Made by a program: the position numbers and the translations under genes
Virus record (IMG/VR): IMGVR_UViG_3300031088_000782
Coordinates: 32,001-96,000 of that record
Length of the DNA stretch: 64,000 nt
From: a virus
Lineage: Duplodnaviria > Caudoviricetes
Direction: 5' to 3' (one strand)
Shown here: positions 29,461 to 64,000 of the stretch, piece by piece
How positions within the stretch are numbered: the first letter of the stretch is position 1
How the letters are laid out: each line of letters opens with the position of its first letter
The notes under the pieces: generated by a model
What the model was told of the DNA's origin: nothing
The model's input: only the letters and a program-made list of their open reading frames with translations
Databases searched by the model: none

Positions 29461-32274
29461 ATGTACAATATTTCTGAGTGGCCTGAATGGAATGCATGTC
29501 TCAATATTCTTTTGGATCCAGAGGTTTCCGAAATAGCAAGCAATGGGCCTAACAGTTTCTTCGTTGTGAAAAACGGAAAAAGAATAAAGTTAGACATTAA
29601 AGTTGCTTCCGAAGAGAAATATGCTGAAGGTGTTGAAAAAGGGCTTGTTCCCAAAGTAAAGACAACCAGGGACTTTGACATCAATGGTTATCTATTTGAA
29701 GGTAGGCTCACTTACAGCGCAGGTGGTACTGAAGTCATCGCTCGTTGTCACATTGGACTTTCTCCTTCAACTGTTACTCCACAAGTTTCCATTGCGAAAA
29801 AGAGTGCATCTTTACGTAATCTTGATTCAATTGCTTCACAAGGATCAATGAGTACAGAGATGATGAACTTTTTGAAAATGACTGTGGATGCGGGGTTGAC
29901 AACAGTGCTTTCAGGTGGAACCGGAGCCGGGAAAGAGGTACATAAAAATACTCTTATTCCAACCCCTTCAGGAATGCGAAAAGTTGATGATTTGAACATT
30001 GGTGATACAATTTTTGATGAAGTTGGTAAAAAAACCAAAATTGTTAACAAATATTCACCAAAAGATCCTAAACATTACAGATTGACATTCAATGATGGAA
30101 CAACTGTTGATGCGGGTATGGGGCATTTGTGGAAAGTATATGCACTGAACGAAAAAGTGAATTTCGGCCATAAATCTCATCCTATTCTTGATGAATCTCA
30201 AGTTGCTAATTTAAACAATATTCTTAATGAAGAAGAAGAATTTATTACTTTTTCTGAACTTAGAGAAAAAATTGGTGGAAATATCGACAAAACTGGATCT
30301 ATAAGAGAAACAGTCAAAGGTTTTGGCACAAAAGCAATTGATTTTTTTAATTTTGAGAAAGATTCAGTTGTTGAAAAAATCAAAAAATCAACAATCAATG
30401 AAAAAGATAAGAATGAAATCCTGAAAAGATTTAATACTGTTCAAGAGTCTTCTTTGTCTTTGAGAAAAGTGAAAGAACTTGTTGATAGCAGATATTTCGT
30501 TTCTAAGATTCTCCCCACTGAGCACAAAATTTCACAAGAAACAGTGTTTGTAAAGAAAGAAGTTGCTACACATCTTTTGAAAGATGACGAATTAAGAAAA
30601 GAAGCAAGAAAAAATCTTGACAAATCTTATCAAAGTGCTACTCGCCCTGTGAAAGTGATGACCACTCAAGAATTGGTTGATTATGGAGTAGTTAATAAAA
30701 AAGGGCGTTTAAATTTTGCTGTTGAAAGCTTACAGAATCCTGTTGAATACGATAAGCAAGATCTTCCTATTGATCCTTATACTCTAGGTGCCTGGTTAGG
30801 TGATGGATATTCAGCAACCGGAAGTATTTGCGGAATAGATAAAGAAGTTATTGAAAAAATTTATGAAAATGGGTTTAACTACAAAGAAAGACAGGATTTT
30901 AACGAAAGACAGAATATTCCTCTGAGTATTTGGACAGTTGAGGGTTTGAGTAAACTTCTCAGAGAAAACAATTTGAAGAACAATAAGCACATTCCAGAAA
31001 TTTACAAATATTCTTCTGTTAAACAAAGAATTCAATTACTTTCAGGATTGCTTGACACCGATGGGACTTTGGATTATCGTCGTGGAACAGTTCATGTTGG
31101 AATGACTGTTGAAAGCATTGTTAAAAACATGAGAGAAATAGTTTGCTCTCTCGGATGGCACGCTACTCCTGTTATTTCTCGTGAGAGAAGCTACAAAGCT
31201 GCTGACGGAACTAAAGTTGAGTGCAAGGATAGTTACGGCTTCAGTTTTGTTCCTGATGTTCAATTGTTTAATATTTCAAGAAAAGCGAAACTTCTGCATG
31301 AAAGATTAGGTAGAGATATTTCTCAGCAAGACAGACGAAACAGGCACTATATCAAAGATATTCAGTTGATTGAAGACGCTAAGGCCGAGGACTATTACTG
31401 CTTTGAAGTAGATTCAGCAACTCATATGTTCTTGTGCTCTGAGTCTTTCATTCCTACTCATAACACTACTATGCTTGAAGCCATGACTAAATTGTTCCCG
31501 AATGATTATAGAATTGCTGTTGCCGAGGATATTCCTGAACTTGTTCTTGTCCAGCCTAACGTCACTTATTGGGAGGCTGTTCCGTTTGTTCCTGGTATGG
31601 ATCCGAATGAAGTTGCCACTTTGCAGTGGGTTGTGAAGCAGTTCCAGCGTAATAGAAATGACAGAATCATCATTGGTGAGACTCGTGGCGCTGAGTTTTC
31701 TGAATTCTTAGTCGCTGCTAACTCTGGTAAAAACGGTTCTTTGACAACAATCCACGCTGATGATCCTGTATCATGCTTGAGAAAGATGACAAATTTTGCT
31801 ATTCAAGGTTTCGGAGGATTGAACATTCGTTCTGTTAACACTGAATTATCTACTGCTGTAAATATTATTGTACAGTTGAATAGGTTCCCTGACACTGGAA
31901 GGCACCGTGTGACTCAAATTCAAGAAGTTACACAAACTTTGAGTAATCAGGAGAATGCTCAAATTTCTACTCAACCTTTGTATTCTTATGATCCGTTGAG
32001 TGACACTTTCCAGAAAGAAGAAAATATGACTGATGGGCTTCGCAATCTTTGTGCTCAGAGGGGCGTTGACATTAGCGAATTCCTGAAGTCAAGATTGCAT
32101 GAGCCTACCCCTGGTCATAATAGCTCTGGAGGCGCTGGTGGGCGAAATAACCCGACTTCAGGCAATAGGACATTAGGTAGTCCATTATCTGATTCTGGAG
32201 CGTCTGAGGGGGCTTCTAAGCGCAGGAGACTTCCTACTGCAAATCCTTTCAGTAAAGGTGGTAGAAACATATGA
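29461..32274 (+). CDS. tadA: TadA/CpaF/VirB11-family secretion ATPase interrupted by an intein
   Basis: After removing the intein: SGGTGAGK|TTMLEAM, IAVAEDIPEL, DRIIIGETRGAE, GSLTTIHADD. Confidence 0.85.
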   Translation: MYNISEWPEWNACLNILLDPEVSEIASNGPNSFFVVKNGKRIKLDIKVASEEKYAEGVEKGLVPKVKTTRDFDINGYLFEGRLTYSAGGTEVIARCHIGLSPSTVTPQVSIAKKSASLRNLDSIASQGSMSTEMMNFLKMTVDAGLTTVLSGGTGAGKEVHKNTLIPTPSGMRKVDDLNIGDTIFDEVGKKTKIVNKYSPKDPKHYRLTFNDGTTVDAGMGHLWKVYALNEKVNFGHKSHPILDESQVANLNNILNEEEEFITFSELREKIGGNIDKTGSIRETVKGFGTKAIDFFNFEKDSVVEKIKKSTINEKDKNEILKRFNTVQESSLSLRKVKELVDSRYFVSKILPTEHKISQETVFVKKEVATHLLKDDELRKEARKNLDKSYQSATRPVKVMTTQELVDYGVVNKKGRLNFAVESLQNPVEYDKQDLPIDPYTLGAWLGDGYSATGSICGIDKEVIEKIYENGFNYKERQDFNERQNIPLSIWTVEGLSKLLRENNLKNNKHIPEIYKYSSVKQRIQLLSGLLDTDGTLDYRRGTVHVGMTVESIVKNMREIVCSLGWHATPVISRERSYKAADGTKVECKDSYGFSFVPDVQLFNISRKAKLLHERLGRDISQQDRRNRHYIKDIQLIEDAKAEDYYCFEVDSATHMFLCSESFIPTHNTTMLEAMTKLFPNDYRIAVAEDIPELVLVQPNVTYWEAVPFVPGMDPNEVATLQWVVKQFQRNRNDRIIIGETRGAEFSEFLVAANSGKNGSLTTIHADDPVSCLRKMTNFAIQGFGGLNIRSVNTELSTAVNIIVQLNRFPDTGRHRVTQIQEVTQTLSNQENAQISTQPLYSYDPLSDTFQKEENMTDGLRNLCAQRGVDISEFLKSRLHEPTPGHNSSGGAGGRNNPTSGNRTLGSPLSDSGASEGASKRRRLPTANPFSKGGRNI
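29935..31464 (+). mobile_element. 510-aa class 3 intein with LAGLIDADG homing endonuclease in the tadA P-loop
   Basis: Block A EVHKNTLIPTPSG; block B GHLW (W at 30130); LGAWLGDG and LLSGLLDTDG endonuclease motifs; block F YYCFEVDS (C at 31399); block G IPTHN followed by T+1. Confidence 0.9.
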
Positions 32275-54428: not shown

Positions 54429-55853
54429 ATGCAATTAGTCATCATACTTGCCTTAGTCTATGTTATAGCTATGCCAATACTATTTCGTCTGATAGCACTG
54501 CTGCATAAAAAACTCGTTACAGACAGAGCAGCACAAAAAGCAGGGAATAATAAAGCCTTACAAAACAAAGTTCCACAACCAATATGGCGAATATGGAAAG
54601 AAAGAATCAGTTTTACCTTCAAAGACAAAAGAGACGCGAAAATAGGAAAGAAACAACTCAACCTACAAAACAGACAACTCTTTTTTATAATCTGGGGAAT
54701 AGGTCTAGCAGCAGTAGCATTAGGAGCATTCTTAGGGAACTGGAAAATTTATGTGCCATCCTACCTCATCTTCTTCTTCGCAATGGGATATGCAATAACA
54801 GCATCCAAAGACATACTCCAAAAACGAGAAAAAATGTATCGAAGAATGTTTGAAATTGCGCAATCGAAACTCGGAATATCTTCAGAATATTCCGAAAACC
54901 CACAAGCAGTCATCAGAGTATTAGAATGGGCTGACCCACTCAAACCAAACAAAGTTCAATTCGATGTGCCAACAACATTCGGACAAGAAGGCGAAGAAGG
55001 ATTCTTGCGCCAATTTAACCAAGTATTCGGAAACGAGACAGCCTGGGTGCCATTTGATGATGCAGAAAACGGAGTTCCCGGATGGAACTACGAAGAAGGA
55101 ACCGCAACATTCAGGGCTGTCCCGCCTTTGCCAACAATGGCACCGTGGGATGAACATTATGTATTGGGAGAAGGAGTTGCCTGGTCATTCTTTCCGATAG
55201 CCTTGGGCGTAGAGAACGGTGTCTCATTACCAAACCCACAAACAGGCGAAGTAGAGAATGTTTTAGGATTTGATTTATCTGGCGAACAAGTAAAAATTGG
55301 CAAAAAAGCTGGATTAGCAGTTGGGCCAGAGATTACCACTTCCCCAATGTGTTTAACAGGAGATACAAAAGTTGTTTTGGCTGATAACTCTGCAATAACT
55401 TTAAAAGATATGTCTGATTCAAATATTTCAGAATTTTTGGTAAAGAGTAATGAAAATGGAATTATTAAAAACAACATAATGAGAAGTATAATAAAAACAA
55501 GAAGCAATGCTGAAACATTAATTATTGAATTAGATGATGAGGGAATAATTAAGTCTACTTATGATCATTTAATTTATACTGACAAAGGATATGTTAAAGC
55601 TAAAGATTTAAAAACATTTGATAAAGTATTTTGTTTAGATGAAACTTATTCAACAATTATTAATATTAGTAAAGGAGAAGTTGTTGATGTATATGATGGA
55701 GAAGTAGATAAAGCTCATAACTTTTTCATCAAAACGGAGGGGCATTTAGATAATGCAGTCCAGGTTCACAATTGCTTTATCGGCGGGGGAACAGGCGGAG
55801 GAAAAAGTTTATCGGTGGATACACTGGTTGAAATTATCAATAAAGAACAGTAG
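54429..55853 (+). CDS. N-terminal gene of a fractured FtsK/SpoIIIE/TcpA-like ATPase (cis mini-intein plus split-intein N-fragment)
   Basis: TM helices, VQFDVP/FPIALGV FtsK-alpha-like region, then SPM|intein|CFIGGGTGGGK|SLSVDTLVEIINKEQ-stop. No Walker B or motor body in this ORF. Confidence 0.75.
   Translation: MQLVIILALVYVIAMPILFRLIALLHKKLVTDRAAQKAGNNKALQNKVPQPIWRIWKERISFTFKDKRDAKIGKKQLNLQNRQLFFIIWGIGLAAVALGAFLGNWKIYVPSYLIFFFAMGYAITASKDILQKREKMYRRMFEIAQSKLGISSEYSENPQAVIRVLEWADPLKPNKVQFDVPTTFGQEGEEGFLRQFNQVFGNETAWVPFDDAENGVPGWNYEEGTATFRAVPPLPTMAPWDEHYVLGEGVAWSFFPIALGVENGVSLPNPQTGEVENVLGFDLSGEQVKIGKKAGLAVGPEITTSPMCLTGDTKVVLADNSAITLKDMSDSNISEFLVKSNENGIIKNNIMRSIIKTRSNAETLIIELDDEGIIKSTYDHLIYTDKGYVKAKDLKTFDKVFCLDETYSTIINISKGEVVDVYDGEVDKAHNFFIKTEGHLDNAVQVHNCFIGGGTGGGKSLSVDTLVEIINKEQ
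55350..55772 (+). other. 141-aa class 1 mini-intein (no endonuclease)
   Basis: C1-LTGDTKV block A; IKSTYDHLIYT block B; VYDGEVDKAHNFF block F; QVHN followed by C+1. Confidence 0.9.
55806..55850 (+). other. 15-aa split-intein N-fragment (block A only)
   Basis: SLSVDTLVEIINKEQ directly after the Walker A Lys, matching the x-L-x-x-D-T-x-V block A pattern, then TAG. Confidence 0.75.
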
Positions 55854-55854
55854 T

Positions 55855-55917
55855 TTATTCTCCTCTTAAAAGTTGATATAATAAGATATAGAAACTTTTA
55901 AATTAAGGAGAAAATAA
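55855..55917 (+). promoter_or_regulatory. Hairpin sequestering the SD of the endonuclease gene, with a promoter element in its loop
   Basis: TTAAAAGTT (55866-74) pairs with AACTTTTAA (55893-901); TTCTCCT (55858-64) pairs with AGGAGAA (55906-12); TGATATAAT at 55874-82. Confidence 0.6.
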
Positions 55918-55919
55918 TT

Positions 55920-56891
55920 ATGGCTAAAGAAAAATATTATGGCTTTGACAAAAAATACACCGAAAAAGATGTTTGTGAAGAATATAAAAAAGGAAAATCT
56001 TTAAGTCAAATTTATAAAGACATAGGGGTAGCTCAAGTTACAACTAAAAAAATATTAAATAAACACAATATTCAAGAAAGGCAATTTCAAGTAGAATATA
56101 AAGAAGTAATTAAAGAGCTTGAAAAAGTAAGTATTGGGAAAAATGAGATATATGATTTTTATATTGTTCAAGGAAAATCTCAAAAGTTTCTGAAAGATAT
56201 GATTTTTGAGAAAACATCTATCAAAGTTGGAGACAAGGTTATTAATTCTCTTCTTAAATATTTCGAAATCAAAAAGAGTCCTGAACAAATAAAACGAGCA
56301 CAAGGGAATAAGTCTTTAAGCGAAAAAGCTTATAGTTATTCAATGCTTAAAAAAGCTGGATTTAATTCTACAAAAGAGCTTGCCGATTTTTATACAAATA
56401 ATTCAAATATGACTTATAGCGAAATTTGTGAATTATTGAATAATAAAATAGGAAAAGATGTGTTCACTCCACGTTGGCTTGGTAGGCATATGGCGAAAGA
56501 AATTGCAGAAGAAAATAAGGCTAAATCTTCTGTGTCTGAAAGGAGTTTAATGAAATATGTTGATTCAATTTATTCTGGTGAAATTTTGAAAAACAATTAT
56601 AACATTATCCCTCCAAAAGAATTAGACATTTATATTCCTGAATTTAACATTGCTATTGAATTTAATGGATTGTATTGGCATAGTGATAAGTTTATTGTTG
56701 CTAATCATGATATGACTTCTTATGACTATCATTATCAAAAATGGGAATTATGTAAGGATAAAGGAATTCAGCTTCTTTTCGTTTGGGAAGATGATTGGGA
56801 AGAGGATAAAGAAATTATAAAGAAAGCTCTTCTAGATGCTCTTAGCTTAGACAATAGAATTTTTAACCCTAAACTGTTTAGACTCGAATGA
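55920..56891 (+). CDS. Free-standing Vsr/PD-(D/E)xK-type (Hef-like) endonuclease with N-terminal HTH-like repeats
   Basis: SERSL...PKELDIYIPEFNIAIEFNGLYWHSD...YHYQKWELCKDKGIQLLFVWEDDW. Confidence 0.75.
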   Translation: MAKEKYYGFDKKYTEKDVCEEYKKGKSLSQIYKDIGVAQVTTKKILNKHNIQERQFQVEYKEVIKELEKVSIGKNEIYDFYIVQGKSQKFLKDMIFEKTSIKVGDKVINSLLKYFEIKKSPEQIKRAQGNKSLSEKAYSYSMLKKAGFNSTKELADFYTNNSNMTYSEICELLNNKIGKDVFTPRWLGRHMAKEIAEENKAKSSVSERSLMKYVDSIYSGEILKNNYNIIPPKELDIYIPEFNIAIEFNGLYWHSDKFIVANHDMTSYDYHYQKWELCKDKGIQLLFVWEDDWEEDKEIIKKALLDALSLDNRIFNPKLFRLE

Positions 56892-56971
56892 CTGACTATT
56901 ACTAAAAAAAAGAATATTGTTAAAATACTATTACTTGTGAAATTAATTTAAACAGTTAAAAAGGATGGATA

Positions 56972-59239
56972 ATGACTATTAATCTTGATAAAGAGATTAT
57001 TGAAATGTATATAGAGACAAAGAGTTTAACAAAAGTTTCGAAACATTTTAAGAGGTCTCCTGCTACTGTGAAAAGAATTTTAAGAAATAACAACGTTGCT
57101 TTAATTCCTCCTCCTTTGACTGTTCGACAAATTAATGAATTATTGGAGAAGAATAATATAACTGTGAGTGAAATTGAAAAACAGTATTCGAATAAAAGTT
57201 CTAAAGAGTTGAGATTGTGGTTGTCTGATAAAGTTGATTATTCTATTAGTCAGTCTATGATTGAAAGATTGCTGAAATTCTTGAGTATAAATAAGCCTTT
57301 TCAAAGTTTAACAACTGTTGTTGATGAGCGTTCTCAAATTTTGTTGAATGAGTGGGATTACACTAAAAACAATTGCGATATATCAGATGTTTCTATTGGT
57401 TCAAGTAAGGACTTTTGGTGGATTTGTTCTTTAGGTCATAATTTTGAAGCGAATGTTTATGATCGTTATTCTTTAGGTTATGATTGTTCTGTTTGTGCCG
57501 GAAAGATTGTTGTTGCTGGTTTTAATGATCTGCTATCAAATAATCCTGTTGTTGCTTCTGAATGGAATTATAAAAAGAACGATGATTTAAGCCCTGATAT
57601 GGTTACTACGGTTTCGGGGAAAAAGGTTTGGTGGGTTTGTAGTAAAGATAATACGCACGAATGGGAAGCTAAAATTTCTGCAAGAACGAATAAAACTACA
57701 TCTACTGGTTGTCCTTATTGCACAAATCAAAGAGTTGTAGTTGGAAAAAATGATCTGCAAACAAATTTTCCTAAAATTGCCGAAGAATGGGATTACGAAA
57801 AGAATAATGAATTAAAATCTAATCAAGTTTTTTCTAATTCTAACAAAGAGATTTGGTGGATAGGTAAGGATTGTGGGCATAGTTGGAAAAGTAGAATTTC
57901 CGATAGAATGCTTAACAGTTATGGATGTCCTTATTGTAGTGGGAAAAGAGTCTTGAAAGGGTTTAATGATCTAAGAACTACTCATGTTGATTTAGTAAAA
58001 GAGTGGGATAACGAATTAAACAATGAAAGTTTTGAAGAATGCTCATCTGGTTCTCATAAAAAAGTATTTTGGAAATGTTTTGAGAACCATTCATGGAGTG
58101 CTTCCATTAAAGATAGGGTTCGTGGGAATAATTGCCCTGTTTGCTCAGGTAGAAAACTTGTTGTTGGAGTTAATGATTTAGCTACTGTTAATCCTGATCT
58201 TGCTCTTGAGTGGGATTATGACAAGAATGGCGATTTAACGCCTCAAAATGTTACTGCTGGTGCTGATCGTAAAATCTGGTGGAAGTGCGAAAAAGAGCAT
58301 TCGTGGATCTCTGGTTTAACTAGCAGAAATTATTATCAAACTTCTTGCCCTATGTGTTCTCATTCTGGTGTTTCAAAAATGGAACAAGATTTTGGCAAAT
58401 ATTTGAAAAAGATCTACTCAGGAAACATTATTCAAAGCGACAGAACGATTTTAATGCCTAAAGAATTGGACTTTTATCTTCCTGCTTTGAATATGGCTTT
58501 TGAGTTTAATGGTCTTTATTGGCACAGTGAAGCTTCTGGCAAAGATAAAAACTACCATTATGATAAGTGGAAGAAATGTCATGATAAAGACATTCAACTG
58601 ATTACTATTTGGGAGGATGACTGGAATTTGAATCGTTCTGTTGTTGAGAAAGTTTTAGCTTATAAATTAGGCGCGTCAGAGGCAGAAAAAATTGGTGCGA
58701 GAAAGACTTATGTTGATTCCGATGTTCCTTTTAAAGATGTTGAGGAATTGTTGAATAATAATCATATTCAGGGTTCTATTTCTGGTTCTGATTATATTGG
58801 GTTGCGTTCTAAGGTTGATGATTCTTTGGTGGCTGTTATAGTACTTAGACGCTCTTTTAAGGCGACCGGAGAGCTTGATGTTGAGATTGTTCGTTATGCT
58901 ACTTCTCAAAGCGTTCAGGGCGGTTTTACTAAGCTTTTGAAACATGTTGCGAAAGAGTTTGATCCTGTGACTGTTTCTACTTTTTCTGATAATGAGATCA
59001 GTGATGGTGGATTGTATGAACGTCATGGGTTTGAAAAGGTTTATGAATTGAAACCGGATTATAAATATATTCATAATGGAGAGCGTAAGCATAAGTTTTT
59101 ATTCCGAAAAGATCGTTTTAGAGTTAATCCTGATTTATTGTTTGAAGATGGCTTAACTGAGAGTGAGCTTGCTGATTTGAATGGGTTATATAGAGTTTAT
59201 GATTCTGGAAAAACAAAATGGGTTTTAACAGAAAAATGA
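56972..59239 (+). CDS. Hef-like endonuclease with five treble-clef zinc-ribbon (DUF4379-type) repeats
   Basis: 5 copies of EW(D/N)xxxN...W(W/K/I)C..GH.W....R.....CPxC (one copy degenerate); PKELDFYLP..EFNGLYWHSE..IWEDDW; C-terminal EIVRYAT..GGFTKLLKH..GLYRVYDSGK.KW as in T4 Hef-like proteins. Confidence 0.8.
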   Translation: MTINLDKEIIEMYIETKSLTKVSKHFKRSPATVKRILRNNNVALIPPPLTVRQINELLEKNNITVSEIEKQYSNKSSKELRLWLSDKVDYSISQSMIERLLKFLSINKPFQSLTTVVDERSQILLNEWDYTKNNCDISDVSIGSSKDFWWICSLGHNFEANVYDRYSLGYDCSVCAGKIVVAGFNDLLSNNPVVASEWNYKKNDDLSPDMVTTVSGKKVWWVCSKDNTHEWEAKISARTNKTTSTGCPYCTNQRVVVGKNDLQTNFPKIAEEWDYEKNNELKSNQVFSNSNKEIWWIGKDCGHSWKSRISDRMLNSYGCPYCSGKRVLKGFNDLRTTHVDLVKEWDNELNNESFEECSSGSHKKVFWKCFENHSWSASIKDRVRGNNCPVCSGRKLVVGVNDLATVNPDLALEWDYDKNGDLTPQNVTAGADRKIWWKCEKEHSWISGLTSRNYYQTSCPMCSHSGVSKMEQDFGKYLKKIYSGNIIQSDRTILMPKELDFYLPALNMAFEFNGLYWHSEASGKDKNYHYDKWKKCHDKDIQLITIWEDDWNLNRSVVEKVLAYKLGASEAEKIGARKTYVDSDVPFKDVEELLNNNHIQGSISGSDYIGLRSKVDDSLVAVIVLRRSFKATGELDVEIVRYATSQSVQGGFTKLLKHVAKEFDPVTVSTFSDNEISDGGLYERHGFEKVYELKPDYKYIHNGERKHKFLFRKDRFRVNPDLLFEDGLTESELADLNGLYRVYDSGKTKWVLTEK

Positions 59240-59247
59240 CATTATAG

Positions 59248-59997
59248 AATTATGTTTTAATTTTTGTTGAGCCACTTGGATTGTCTAGCACAGGAAATAG
59301 CTCTACAGCTGGAAACATTGCGGCTGGGTTTGTTGATGGATTAATTGGGTTCCCTGTTGTTGAAAAAATTAGTAATTATATTTCTCCTGGTAGCGTTGAT
59401 AATTGTAGTGATGCCTATAAATATAGTGGATATGCTGGTTTTGCAGCTGGATTCATAATACCAGGTGGAGCACTTGTCAAAAGTGTTTCAGTAGCGGGTA
59501 AGATAGGTGTATTAGCTAGTAAAATAGGATCAAAAGTATCTTCTTCAATTAGCAAACGTATTGCTTTAATGAATGAAGATGGCTTTATACTAATAAAATT
59601 TAGTAAAAAAGATTTTGACAGATCTAAAATGAGCGATTTACAAGAAATAAGTAAACTAACGAGAAAAACAACGAATCAAATGAACCGAGAAATAAGAAAA
59701 AATGGTGGTAGTATATCTAATATAACTAGAGTAGACAATCCTAAAGAAATACTTGGACATAAAGAACTGCCACATGTAACATTTAAAAAGTTTAAAGATC
59801 ACGAAGTGGCTTTAAACATAGATGGATCATGGAAACATAATAAAGGAAACTACAAACCTACTAATAAGGAAATTAAATGGCTTAAAAATATGGGTTCTTA
59901 CCACCTGAAAAATAGAAACTTTGGAGACATAAATGAAAATTTTTTTACTAAGTTTTATGGATTTAATGTATGCAATATATTTCATATTAAAGTTTAA
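59248..59997 (+). pseudogene. Orphan Rhs-type C-terminal toxin remnant
   Basis: In-frame upstream of the TTG: NYVLIFVEPLGL (like the Rhs core end DPxGL). Then AAGFVDGL..VDNCSDAY pre-toxin linker and PHVTF..ALNIDGSWKH..WL tip. Probable 1-nt deletion near 59894. Confidence 0.55.
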
Positions 59998-60802
59998 TTA
60001 TAAAAAAGAGGAGATCCTTATAACTCACATAACAGAAGATAGAATTTTAGATATATTTAAATCCAATACTGATATGAGAAAAAGATATTTTTCAAATTTT
60101 AGATTAATGTTAATTGAAGATTTTTATGTTTTAACTACCATTAATACTTCTAATAATATAAAAAAAACTTACTTTAATAAAAATATAAGAAAAGAAAAGA
60201 ACTTTATTTTAGGTTCAATCGAAAAAGAATATGGTACTATCTCTCTTTACAAAAAAAACGAAAATTCTAAATTTTCGCTACATACGAGATTAAATAATAT
60301 TGATAACATTAACTATACAATTTTAGATAGAGTTCAAATGATTTTTGCGGGGGAATGCATTGACGATTTAACTTCTGATTTAGAAAGAAATCTATTTGAA
60401 TACAATTTAGATGTTTATTTTGGAAGTGCTGGGGAATGGTTGAATATTTATCCTAGTGAGATTGTTAAGGAAGAAATTGTTGAGCATAAAGATCTTATTA
60501 TTGATTTTTGCGATAAAAGAGATTTAGTGTTTTGTTATTCAGAAAAATATGAATATGACAAAAAACTTAAAAAACATGTTCAAAAAATTGATTCTATTGA
60601 TCCAAAGTTAGGATTCATTAAAAAAGAATCATTTGATGACTGGATTTCAATGGATGTATTCACACCAAAAACTATAACAAATGATGGAATTTTTTATCAA
60701 TATAGAACAGTTAGAGAAAAAGAAAAAGATGAATTTTTAATAGAACATATTTTTGTTCAACAGTTTAAAAACTTTAAAACAAAAATTAAAAACATTGAAT
60801 AA
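59933..60802 (+). CDS. Very AT-rich hypothetical protein, candidate cognate immunity protein by position
   Basis: SD ggaga at 59923; immediately follows the toxin-like tip; no recognisable motif. Confidence 0.4.
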   Translation: MKIFLLSFMDLMYAIYFILKFNYKKEEILITHITEDRILDIFKSNTDMRKRYFSNFRLMLIEDFYVLTTINTSNNIKKTYFNKNIRKEKNFILGSIEKEYGTISLYKKNENSKFSLHTRLNNIDNINYTILDRVQMIFAGECIDDLTSDLERNLFEYNLDVYFGSAGEWLNIYPSEIVKEEIVEHKDLIIDFCDKRDLVFCYSEKYEYDKKLKKHVQKIDSIDPKLGFIKKESFDDWISMDVFTPKTITNDGIFYQYRTVREKEKDEFLIEHIFVQQFKNFKTKIKNIE

Positions 60803-60863
60803 ACAAATACGAATGGTTGTTGAAAAAATTAGAAAATAGTTCAATAACCATTCGTATTTGTTT
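60801..60863. terminator. 24-bp hairpin, bidirectional terminator between convergent genes
   Basis: aaacaaatacgaatggttgttgaa / ttcaataaccattcgtatttgttt, with A/T runs on both sides. Confidence 0.8.
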
Positions 60864-60934
60864 TTTTAAAATAAGATTATAGATATGGGATGTTTTTATC
60901 CATTTGTTTTATTGTATGTGAAAGTTGATTTTTT

Positions 60935-61120
60935 TCAATTGGAGAATTTTTGATTTTTTAATCCGCCTTCTTCTCTGCAATCTTTTGTTGAAAGTTTTGA
61001 ACTGCTGATGTTGGTTTTATCATTGGAATTAATGGATGAAGCAGTTGCTTGTTGTATAGAAGAATTTGTCAATGTTAAGGATAGTATTATCAGTGATGTT
61101 ATTTTAATAATATTCTTCAT
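60935..61120 (-). CDS. Small secreted peptide (61 aa), the only credible minus-strand gene
   Basis: Strong SD AAAAGGAG on the minus strand; signal peptide MKNIIKITSLIILSLTLTNSSIQQATA-S. Confidence 0.6.
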   Translation of the reverse strand: MKNIIKITSLIILSLTLTNSSIQQATASSINSNDKTNISSSKLSTKDCREEGGLKNQKFSN

Positions 61121-61252
61121 TGCGAAAAACTCCTTTTATGATTAGAGAAACAAGATGAATAATATTTTTATATCGTTATATTTTAATTCACGTTCGATAA
61201 TTCATTTAGAAAAGATTTCATAATTGTTTAACAAATCGGTAGGAGAATAGTA

Positions 61253-62903: not shown

Positions 62904-63767
62904 ATGAAATATTTACCGTGGAATAGATTACAGCTTGATTCTCAGCTGAACAATGGGAATCGTGTGTCTAAGCAATCTGTAAGTTTCAGTGTTTATCGAA
63001 CTTTTAAAAAGAAAATGAGCTGGACTCCGATGATTATGAACAATGGTGCAGTTTTTTATGGAGAAGATGAGACACAGATTGATGATTTTCTTGAAACTAT
63101 CCTTTCTCAATCGAAAAAATTTGAAGAGTCTGTAACGATAGCCTTATATGACTTGCGAGAGCATCAGAATAACGCTTTTGAGGCTTTAGAATCGAAGTAT
63201 CGAGTATTTGAGTATCATCCTTATAAAAGCGATTTAAAAACGCTGATAAAGGATTTTGTAATTTTCAGAAATGAGATAAAAGAGAAGACTCAGGCGTTGG
63301 GATTGGTTGAATCTCCACATAGAAAAATTTTGATTCCTATATTTTTGTTGGATAATGATCAAGTTTCTGTTTTGAGTAACGACAAGTTAAGTAAAATTTT
63401 TCAACATTTTTTAACAGAATCTTCTTTTGAGCGAATTTTTCCTTTTGTTATTGCTCCTTTTGCTGAATCTTTTCCTGAAGATATTGTTAAAGCTTTTCAA
63501 TGGTCTGCTTTTTTGGGTTCAGATAACGCTTCTGTGTGCAGAAAAAAAATATATCCTGACAAAGAGGATAGTTTTTACAGTATTCGGCAAATAGTTATTG
63601 GAACTCTTTACACACGTTTGACTGCACGATTGACAGTTATTCATCCTTATAAGTTTACTCCGTCTGAATATTATTTCAAAAAGGAGCAGCAACTCAAAGA
63701 TGAGGACGAAAATTACAATAAGTTTCTTGATATGTTAGATGATGGAACAGTTAGAGATAGGGTTTGA
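62904..63767 (+). CDS. Hypothetical alpha/beta protein, possibly a degenerate FtsK-like P-loop domain
   Basis: GAVFYGED, IALYDL, ILIPIFLLDND, RIFPFVIA follow RecA-like strand order without intact Walker motifs. Confidence 0.35.
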   Translation: MKYLPWNRLQLDSQLNNGNRVSKQSVSFSVYRTFKKKMSWTPMIMNNGAVFYGEDETQIDDFLETILSQSKKFEESVTIALYDLREHQNNAFEALESKYRVFEYHPYKSDLKTLIKDFVIFRNEIKEKTQALGLVESPHRKILIPIFLLDNDQVSVLSNDKLSKIFQHFLTESSFERIFPFVIAPFAESFPEDIVKAFQWSAFLGSDNASVCRKKIYPDKEDSFYSIRQIVIGTLYTRLTARLTVIHPYKFTPSEYYFKKEQQLKDEDENYNKFLDMLDDGTVRDRV

Positions 63768-63769
63768 AA

Positions 63770-64000
63770 ATGAGTATGAAAAAGTTTGGGGATTTAGAGG
63801 TCGGTGACGTTATTCTTGGTGCTGATAATCAAGATGTTGAGGTTGTCAAAGTTTATGATGAACATATTCCCGAAAAAATGTATGAGATTGAACTGGATAA
63901 TGGTGAGGTTGTTAAAGCTTCTGGAAATCATCTCTGGTATGTTGAAACAGATTTTGATAAAAGTTTTCATAGAGAGCGAAAAAGGCTGGGCAAAAAACAT
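63770..64000 (+). CDS. Start of the split-intein C-fragment gene (partial; not in the ORF track)
   Basis: Own translation: MSMKKFGDLEVGDVILGADNQDVEVVKVYDEHIPEKMYEIELDNGEVVKASGNHLWYVETDF..., i.e. intein N2 region and block B with no block A; open to the window end. Confidence 0.8.
   Translation, partial: MSMKKFGDLEVGDVILGADNQDVEVVKVYDEHIPEKMYEIELDNGEVVKASGNHLWYVETDFDKSFHRERKRLGKKH

Follow-up and report, generated by a model that had tools for sequence, protein, structure and literature searches.

Natural inteins are known as the products of one gene or of two, and inteins in three pieces as synthetic constructs, which have been made from Npu DnaE and gp41-1 (bioRxiv 10.1101/2023.01.30.526203) and from Ssp DnaB (Sun, Yang and Liu 2004, as cited in PMC11766414). 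Among split class 3 inteins, AceL NrdHF is the sole natural case on record, reported after a set of 1701 class 3 inteins had yielded none (PMC7891396). Natural N-terminal intein fragments can be as short as 25-37 amino acids (aa), the values for AceL-TerL (25 aa) and GOS-TerL (37 aa) (PMC11766414). Insertion sites can also be closely spaced: DnaB intein sites a and c are two residues apart (PMC4760082), and neighboring inteins have been found to interact during homing in haloarchaeal MCM (PMC10643990). In fractured genes, both halves occur in one locus, on either side of an endonuclease gene (Dassa et al. 2009, PMC2677866). Here we compare these systems with a locus in viral DNA (Duplodnaviria; Caudoviricetes) from the 309-kb IMG/VR record IMGVR_UViG_3300031088_000782, which carries a provirus class assignment. 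The stretch analyzed, called the window, comprises 64,000 nt (positions 32,001 to 96,000 of the record); positions are those of the window unless the prefix G000:C1 marks coordinates of the whole record. We consider it likely that a class 1 mini-intein and a class 3 intein encoded in three genes bracket the Walker A motif of an FtsK-like ATPase in this genome, and that one splicing event in cis and one in trans would complete the enzyme.

The gene at the center of this arrangement, referred to as the N gene, is a 474-aa open reading frame (ORF) at 54429-55853. Its product reads ...TTSPM, CLTGDTKVV...AVQVHN and CFIGGGTGGGK, and closes with SLSVDTLVEIINKEQ before the stop codon. The first 307 aa (54429-55349, + strand) are the N-extein, as delimited by the ORF, its homologues and DNA identity to an intein-less relative (L004); three hydrophobic N-terminal segments are followed by a conserved soluble domain that ends in TTSPM. 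More than 190 homologues of the N-extein share 42-97% identity with it, and 43 columns of the homologue alignment are invariant. The N gene alone was not recognized by Pfam. No related loci were returned by a search of viral contigs with the single N-extein, or by a search of genome contigs with an alignment (A1). The host features of FtsK/SpoIIIE are nevertheless present in the genome, with the Walker A motif GGGTGGGK on the N gene and the Walker B motif and FtsK domain on a second gene, the C gene. From its sequence, the N gene is most likely the N-terminal third of a membrane-anchored FtsK/SpoIIIE-type ATPase.

Directly after the N-extein lies a class 1 mini-intein of 141 aa (423 nt; 55350-55772, + strand) that has no endonuclease domain, an assignment based on Pfam, PDB, a structural model and homologues. 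It runs from the TGT codon of Cys1 (55350-55352) to the AAT codon of Asn141 (55770-55772), and the next codon is the TGC of Cys+1 (55773-55775). Besides these residues, its motifs include a block B T-x-x-H (STYDH), a block F (DVYDGEV..HNF) and a block G (VHN). The Pfam PT-HINT model matched with an E value of 1.4e-8 and 35.5 bits (cut-off 27.7), and a PDB sequence search identified the Spl DnaX mini-intein (E 4e-4). An AlphaFold (AF2) model computed from 21 homologues had a core predicted local distance difference test (pLDDT) value above 90. Foldseek matched this model to the Ssp DnaB (1mi8) and Mtu RecA (2in0) mini-inteins with an E value of 2.9e-9 and template modeling (TM) scores of 0.85-0.87, and superposition on the same two structures gave root-mean-square deviations (rmsd) of 1.8-2.1 A. 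All 21 homologues (30-92% identity) retain Cys1, both block B residues (Thr and His), the Asn and Cys+1 without exception; the penultimate residue is H, S or K among relatives.

The mini-intein is followed by an 11-aa extein, CFIGGGTGGGK (55773-55805, + strand), which comprises a strand end and the Walker A motif through its Lys; G-G-T-G-G-G-K is invariant in the mini-intein homologue alignment (A4). This segment and the tail after it are disordered in the model of the mini-intein (pLDDT below 50), as expected for a loop and an intein fragment modeled without partners. The mini-intein is similar to those of Ssp DnaB, Mtu RecA and Spl DnaX in its length of ~140 aa, its Cys1, TxxH, His-Asn and Cys+1 residues, its HINT fold and its location near a P-loop. 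It differs from the known class 1 mini-inteins in having an FtsK-like host, a site one strand before Walker A, recent mobility without an endonuclease (see below) and another intein just 11 residues away. In three relatives (P0032, P0033 and P0053), a homologous mini-intein is shifted by 2 residues (SPMAL, C...N, CAGGTGGGK) and is 9 residues from the split-intein junction, a displacement that could represent either intein sliding or an independent invasion.

The 15 residues after the Walker A Lys (SLSVDTLVEIINKEQ, 55806-55850; 55806-55853 with the stop codon, + strand) correspond to block A and are the candidate N piece of the second intein. In 105 of the best 120 N-gene homologues, the P-loop is near the end, and the protein terminates 11-37 aa (median 17) past the GK with [S/A]L..DT.V. 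When aligned, the tail corresponds to the opening residues of contiguous class 3 inteins that occupy the P-loops of two further ATPases of this genome, and likewise to the start of inteins at another site, site-c, in relatives.

A 210-aa ORF without an extein (63764-64396, + strand; 63764-64000 within the window) is the candidate middle piece, identified through homologues, a profile and a model. It contains blocks N2 and B (SGNHLW), a helical insert of ~120 aa and a closing strand (GRIMNT), and has no block A, F or G. Homologues of the middle piece that are at once stand-alone and full-length make up ~100 clusters at 50% identity. The middle-piece profile aligns to gp41-1 (E 4e-9), MchDnaB-1 (E 1.8e-6) and Msm DnaBi1 from their residue 15-16 onward. 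Its AF2 model had a pLDDT of 94.8; a Foldseek search of that model against the PDB gave nothing at E <=0.001, and returned partial matches of 55-59 residues to class 3 and gp41-1 inteins. No convincing structural relative of the helical insert was found, the non-intein matches having Z <=4.9 and a generic-helical look; our impression from an alignment is that the insert may be a decayed LAGLIDADG half-domain. The possibility that this ORF is the C half of a two-piece split intein was rejected, as it has neither blocks F and G nor an extein. Some homologues of the middle piece carry N-terminal extensions (P0144, 314 aa; P0142, 492 aa; P0214, 320 aa). The extension of P0144 ends in a block A-like sequence (GDTYIDEKG...) before the core, so in some lineages the intein may be cut otherwise or partly re-fused.

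A scan of the record with Pfam FtsK_SpoIIIE located the C gene 115 kb downstream (G000:C1:202050-203198), where a 40-aa intein C piece precedes the remainder of the ATPase. The encoded protein starts MKIKSI...RCIEVD...FVTHN and continues with Ser and VVQRN. Its extein matches positions 53-136 of FtsK_SpoIIIE (PF01580; E 3.7e-13), and thus begins just past the Walker A positions of the model; VMVDEAGELL and ATQRPD are present. The C piece matches MchDnaB-1 (E 8e-4), with RC[IV]EVD in common, and several hundred C genes were found.

Several features suggest that these three parts constitute one intein. Neither the 15-aa tail nor the 40-aa C piece has blocks N2 and B, so the two do not make a HINT domain by themselves; the extein-bearing fragments of a two-piece split intein, in contrast, add up to a complete HINT. 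The parts are complementary, with block A in the tail, N2 and B in the middle piece and F and G in the C piece, such that each HINT block is present once. They are also colinear with contiguous class 3 inteins of the same genome: the inteins at the P-loops of a DnaB-like gene (G000:C1:105591-106439) and a TadA-like gene (29908-31467; genome 61908-63467) each contain, within a single frame and in this order, matches to the tail, the middle piece and the C piece, and only a few residues separate the first two of these matches. Contiguous site-c inteins of the same host family align in the same way. The N, middle and C genes co-occur in all of the sufficiently complete relatives (G001, 345 kb; G002, 438 kb; and G004), where the middle gene is 1-5 kb from the N gene and the C gene 90-118 kb away, and the middle gene and its upstream neighbor of ~290 aa are syntenic in three further loci (L005-L007). 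All three parts are intact across more than 60 to 100 diverged relatives. The N-gene homologue search found no fused N+middle or full-length forms, which is weak evidence; the sole match in a search for longer proteins containing the N gene was an unrelated intein-bearing protein.

The residues that define class 3 inteins are found in the parts encoded by this genome: Trp B:12 (NHLW) in the middle piece, and Cys F:4 (RCIEVD) and Thr G:5 (VTHN) in the C piece. RCIEVD of the C piece, which includes Cys16, aligns with RCVEVD of MchDnaB-1 and Msm DnaBi1. Across the family, Cys F:4 is conserved in 61/61 and S/T-H-N-S in 62/62 C pieces, and His B:10 in 74/74 middle pieces. Intein residue 1 is Ser in 77 of the 105 N genes and Ala in the other 28. 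If this residue belonged to the extein, Ala after GK would spoil the Walker A motif; it is therefore the C gene, with its Ser+1, that must supply the Ser of Walker A. The 28 Ala residues, together with the class 3 features, also indicate that Ser1 is not the nucleophile. We conclude that the second intein is most likely a class 3 intein encoded in three genes.

This intein resembles the contiguous class 3 inteins MP-Be DnaB, Msm DnaBi1 and MchDnaB-1 (PDB 6bs8, 6rix) in sequence and in its Trp B:12, its Cys F:4 within RC[IV]EVD, its Thr/Ser-His-Asn, its non-nucleophilic Ser/Ala at residue 1 and its insertion between GK and S of a P-loop. Unlike them, it is distributed over three genes, has an FtsK-like rather than a DnaB host, and carries, after block B and before the last N-lobe strand, the ~120-aa helical insert. 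AceL NrdHF (PMC7891396) is similarly a class 3 intein on separate polypeptides from a metagenomic, phage-like source. However, AceL NrdHF is a single case in two pieces (98 + 48 aa) divided at the canonical split site, whereas the intein described here belongs to a large family and has an extra break after block A, a piece without an extein, and halves that are 115 kb apart. The tail is reminiscent of the AceL-TerL and GOS-TerL N fragments (PMC11766414), which are also very short, extend scarcely beyond block A and are attached to the N-extein; those inteins are class 1, and their remainder (~104-115 aa) is attached to the C-extein, whereas here the remainder is cut again and is mostly a free protein. 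In overall layout, with breaks near the S1 and canonical sites that leave a short N piece and a C piece on either side of a free middle one, the closest counterparts are the synthetic three-piece inteins. Those are laboratory constructs; the present candidate is natural, conserved and class 3. The clustering of sites in ATPase motifs, with neighboring inteins in one host, recalls haloarchaeal MCM (PMC10643990) and DnaB sites a and c (PMC4760082). A limited literature search turned up no case in which sites 11 (or 9) residues apart were occupied simultaneously by inteins of different classes, one for cis and one for trans splicing.

From this anatomy, a working P-loop most likely needs one cis-splicing event and one three-component trans-splicing event. 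After translation of the 474-aa precursor, the mini-intein, one strand before the loop, would excise itself in cis through formation of the Cys1 thioester, transfer to Cys+1 and cyclization of Asn141, joining ...SPM to CFIGGGTGGGK. The product would be a protein of ~333 aa with the P-loop and the 15-aa tail at its end. Together with the free middle piece and the C piece, this tail would then assemble into one HINT fold, in which the block F Cys (Cys16 of the C piece) would attack the Lys-Ser1 bond. The N-extein would be passed to Ser+1, and cyclization of Asn40 would free the intein. The expected end product is GGGTGGGK-S-VVQRN..., a complete P-loop on an ATPase of ~660 aa. An earlier note on this DNA had anticipated part of this scheme. 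It described the tail as the N fragment of a split intein, and the tail is indeed a genuine intein part, although it is block A only, and of a three-piece rather than a two-piece intein. The note's implicit view that the tail belongs to an ordinary split intein using Ser1 does not agree with the class 3 features or with Ala in 28/105 relatives. The proposal that the P-loop requires one cis and one trans event is likewise implied by the anatomy, but the trans event would have three components, and the C half is 115 kb away.

A number of observations count against this scheme. The class 3 triplet is not strict in the family: Trp B:12 is found in 53/74 middle pieces and replaced in 21/74, and G:5 is Ser in 34/62 C pieces and Thr in 28/62. 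The middle piece has its best structural match in residues 20-99 of Npu DnaE IntN, and the agreement is modest (Z 5.6; 69 residues at an rmsd of 6.5 A). Intein-plus and intein-minus alleles have different tails (LVEIINKEQ vs FVKLSNNEK), yet both must fit a similar middle piece. A folded mini-intein 11 residues from the junction may hinder assembly of the second intein. Both splicing reactions and their order are deduced from how the parts are laid out and from what is known of class 1 and class 3 chemistry, and, as the mini-intein has no endonuclease, we can only infer the route by which it moves. Prediction of a complex of the tail (N gene residues 430-474), the middle piece and the C piece (residues 1-80) scored 0.21 against a mark of 0.32, a result that counts neither way.

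We compared N-gene alleles to assess the history of the mini-intein, which is carried by 20 of the 105 N genes. Three pairs of lineages differ in its presence although their exteins are nearly identical: the window and P0004 (97.2% extein identity), P0001 and P0005 (99.7%), and P0002 and P0006 (99.0%). The mini-inteins of the three carrier lineages are 90-92% identical to one another. In P0004, P0005 and P0006, the mini-intein is absent precisely, to the codon, and the sequence reads SPM-A/V-F-I/V-GGGTGGGK. Where the window has Cys, these intein-less alleles thus show Ala or Val, so Cys+1 arrived together with the mini-intein. Contigs in two other metagenomes (X2 and X3) skip 55350-55775 and have GCA (Ala) instead, and intein-plus contigs occur in both metagenomes as well. 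In a blastn comparison with the intein-less relative L004, DNA identity was 93% across 5.2 kb and ended exactly at 55349; the 3' extein tail was only 75.6% identical, and 94% identity resumed at 61183. The GC content of the mini-intein is 0.265 (0.149 at third codon positions), compared with 0.416 (0.349) for the N-extein. Equally low values are found in just 3.5% of the 423-nt windows of the 309-kb record, and the composition resembles that of the adjoining endonuclease genes. A tblastn search of the 309-kb record found no second copy (paralogue) of the mini-intein.

The foreign composition, the presence/absence alleles and the breakpoint at the 5' edge together make separate acquisition of the mini-intein well supported, and these sequence comparisons mark it as a recent, mobile arrival. 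In these respects the earlier note has held up. It had reported a canonical mini-intein of 141 aa and the 11-aa extein CFIGGGTGGGK, and its counts and positions were correct; the intein hidden Markov model scan that it called for gave the PT-HINT match above cut-off described above; and it had rightly noted that the mini-intein DNA was more AT-rich than its host gene and suggested a separate origin. It had also allowed that homologues might reveal the segment as a normal FtsK insertion. Homologues instead show it to be precisely absent, and, given its absence from near-identical alleles, 55350-55772 was rejected as an ordinary FtsK insertion.

The mini-intein forms the 5' edge of a low-GC variable island (55350-61182), as mapped by blastn against L004 and by composition, in which identity to L004 falls from 93% to 76-82% or to no match; counterparts of the island in L004 are lacking or share only 72-82% identity. 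Two free-standing homing-endonuclease genes (323 aa and 755 aa; 55920-59239, + strand) lie directly 3' of the N gene. Both match PHROG 3339 'homing endonuclease' (E 1.3e-34 and 1.2e-87), and the 755-aa endonuclease contains five DUF4379 zinc-ribbon repeats (Pfam DUF4379, E 4.9e-83). Their GC content is 0.28-0.34, and their L004 counterparts are only 72-82% identical. Since the mini-intein has no endonuclease domain, co-conversion with these neighboring genes is the most economical route, and the mini-intein has probably spread in this manner. Also inside the island, at 59281-60802, are two overlapping ORFs (GC 0.22-0.31) that have no family match above noise. The C gene is flanked by Cys-rich endonuclease-like ORFs of its own, one of 631 aa (L003:6076-7971, - strand; G000:C1:200076-201971) and one of 664 aa (L003:9265-11259, + strand; G000:C1:203265-205259) that matches DUF7487 and a Mom-like domain; genes of this kind are thus found at each end of the break in the host gene. 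The locus thus shares with fractured genes (PMC2677866) a split intein, free-standing endonuclease genes of the Vsr-like/PD-(D/E)xK type at the break, and a setting in phage-like elements. It departs from them in that the C gene is 115 kb away (90-118 kb in relatives) with its own flanking endonuclease-like ORFs, and that the intein has three parts.

Both inteins could have been retained as an AND gate that ties completion of the P-loop to two separately controlled events and so gates DNA translocation. The extein-less middle piece, co-translated with a degenerate FtsK-like partner, would act as a diffusible licensing factor and confine P-loop completion to the times and places of that operon's expression, with the mini-intein as a second, independent gate on the translocase. 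Since the insertion site is the catalytic loop, the ATPase must be inactive before splicing, and translational coupling of the middle piece to a conserved FtsK-like ORF (described below) would allow separate control over the supply of the middle piece. For RadA and DnaB, P-loop inteins that splice conditionally have been documented (PMC4513877, PMC6195587). However, the mini-intein is absent from alleles with 97-99.7% extein identity and from co-occurring strains, and is therefore dispensable; it is of foreign composition and sits on a recombination breakpoint. P-loops are, moreover, general intein hot spots (PMC4760082), and class 3 inteins are also found in three other ATPase genes of this genome, in at least two cases at the P-loop. 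An element gained and lost between such similar alleles has the character of a selfish invader and not of a fixed regulator. We thus found no support for the two-step regulatory switch suggested at the outset, and consider an AND gate unlikely, whether stated in general or with the middle piece as licensing factor. We see two unrelated selfish elements stacked at an intein hot spot as the simpler reading.

The split intein might, alternatively, no longer splice, its three parts serving as a non-covalent zipper that holds the ATPase together as a working complex of the N and C proteins. Variation between Ser and Ala at residue 1 and the less than strict Trp B:12 would fit such a loss, but Ser or Ala at residue 1 is expected for class 3, and residues needed only for the chemistry (His B:10, Cys F:4, His-Asn and Ser+1) are invariant in 62-74 diverged sequences. 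A zipper would also leave Walker A without a covalent Ser/Thr after its Lys, and, with Ala in 28/105 N genes, the Ser must come from the C gene. We regard this explanation as improbable, to about the same degree as the AND gate. Far less probable still is that the endonuclease island disrupted an FtsK gene, of which the N gene would be a decaying remnant with the intein-like tail left over. An AT-rich island with two homing-endonuclease genes does begin directly after the stop codon. Yet the open frame, the end point and a conserved block A persist in more than 100 homologues with identities as low as 42%, and every sufficiently complete relative has intact, matching middle and C genes. The conserved open frame, end point and block A also led us to reject a pseudogene reading of the N gene.

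The interest of the locus lies mainly in the combination of a natural three-piece class 3 intein with its tight spacing to a mobile class 1 mini-intein. If our interpretation of two inteins bracketing Walker A is correct, the second would be the first natural three-gene intein and the second natural split class 3 intein. If both reactions run, two mechanistic classes, one acting in cis and one in trans, would operate within 11 residues on a Gly-rich catalytic loop, and such a precursor would be a direct test bed for tolerance of, or interference between, neighboring inteins. The conserved 15-aa N piece, the free middle piece and the predicted Cys nucleophile on the C piece would be of interest for peptide ligation and logic-gated protein assembly. 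The population data, in which a mini-intein without an endonuclease moves from allele to allele at the border of a homing-endonuclease island, are relevant to the spread of such inteins.

Three further contiguous class 3-type inteins are encoded in the record, at 29908-31467, G000:C1:105591-106439 and G000:C1:240984-242321. The first two occupy the P-loops of the TadA-like and DnaB-like genes, respectively, and the helical insert of the middle piece recurs in the intein of the TadA-like gene (25% identity over 198 aa). The host family of the split ATPase is itself an intein hot spot. Some of its members have an intein at a third site (site-c) after Walker B, recognizable by GVK, A/S-L...THN, T/S-DEGK and with a class 3 signature. 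This third-site intein is contiguous (154-276 aa) in the C genes P0294, P0302, P0313, P0317, P0350 and P0375, is split in P0378 and P0386, and is not found in the genome of the window. Where it is split, the ATPase would need three extein-bearing genes.

Upstream of the middle piece lies a 287-aa ORF (62904-63767, + strand) whose stop codon overlaps the middle-piece start. Atlas features (0.94-0.95) and structure (TM 0.60-0.65) suggest an FtsK/EssC-like fold, with no Walker A motif seen; hhalign detected no similarity between this ORF and the C-gene family. Its pairing with the middle piece is conserved, with 36-38% identity in L005. Finally, a protein identical to the C-gene product (P0271) is encoded on a 681,645-bp contig, and the contigs of relatives measure 670-727 kb; given this identical C gene, the element may be far larger than the 309 kb covered by the 'provirus' record.

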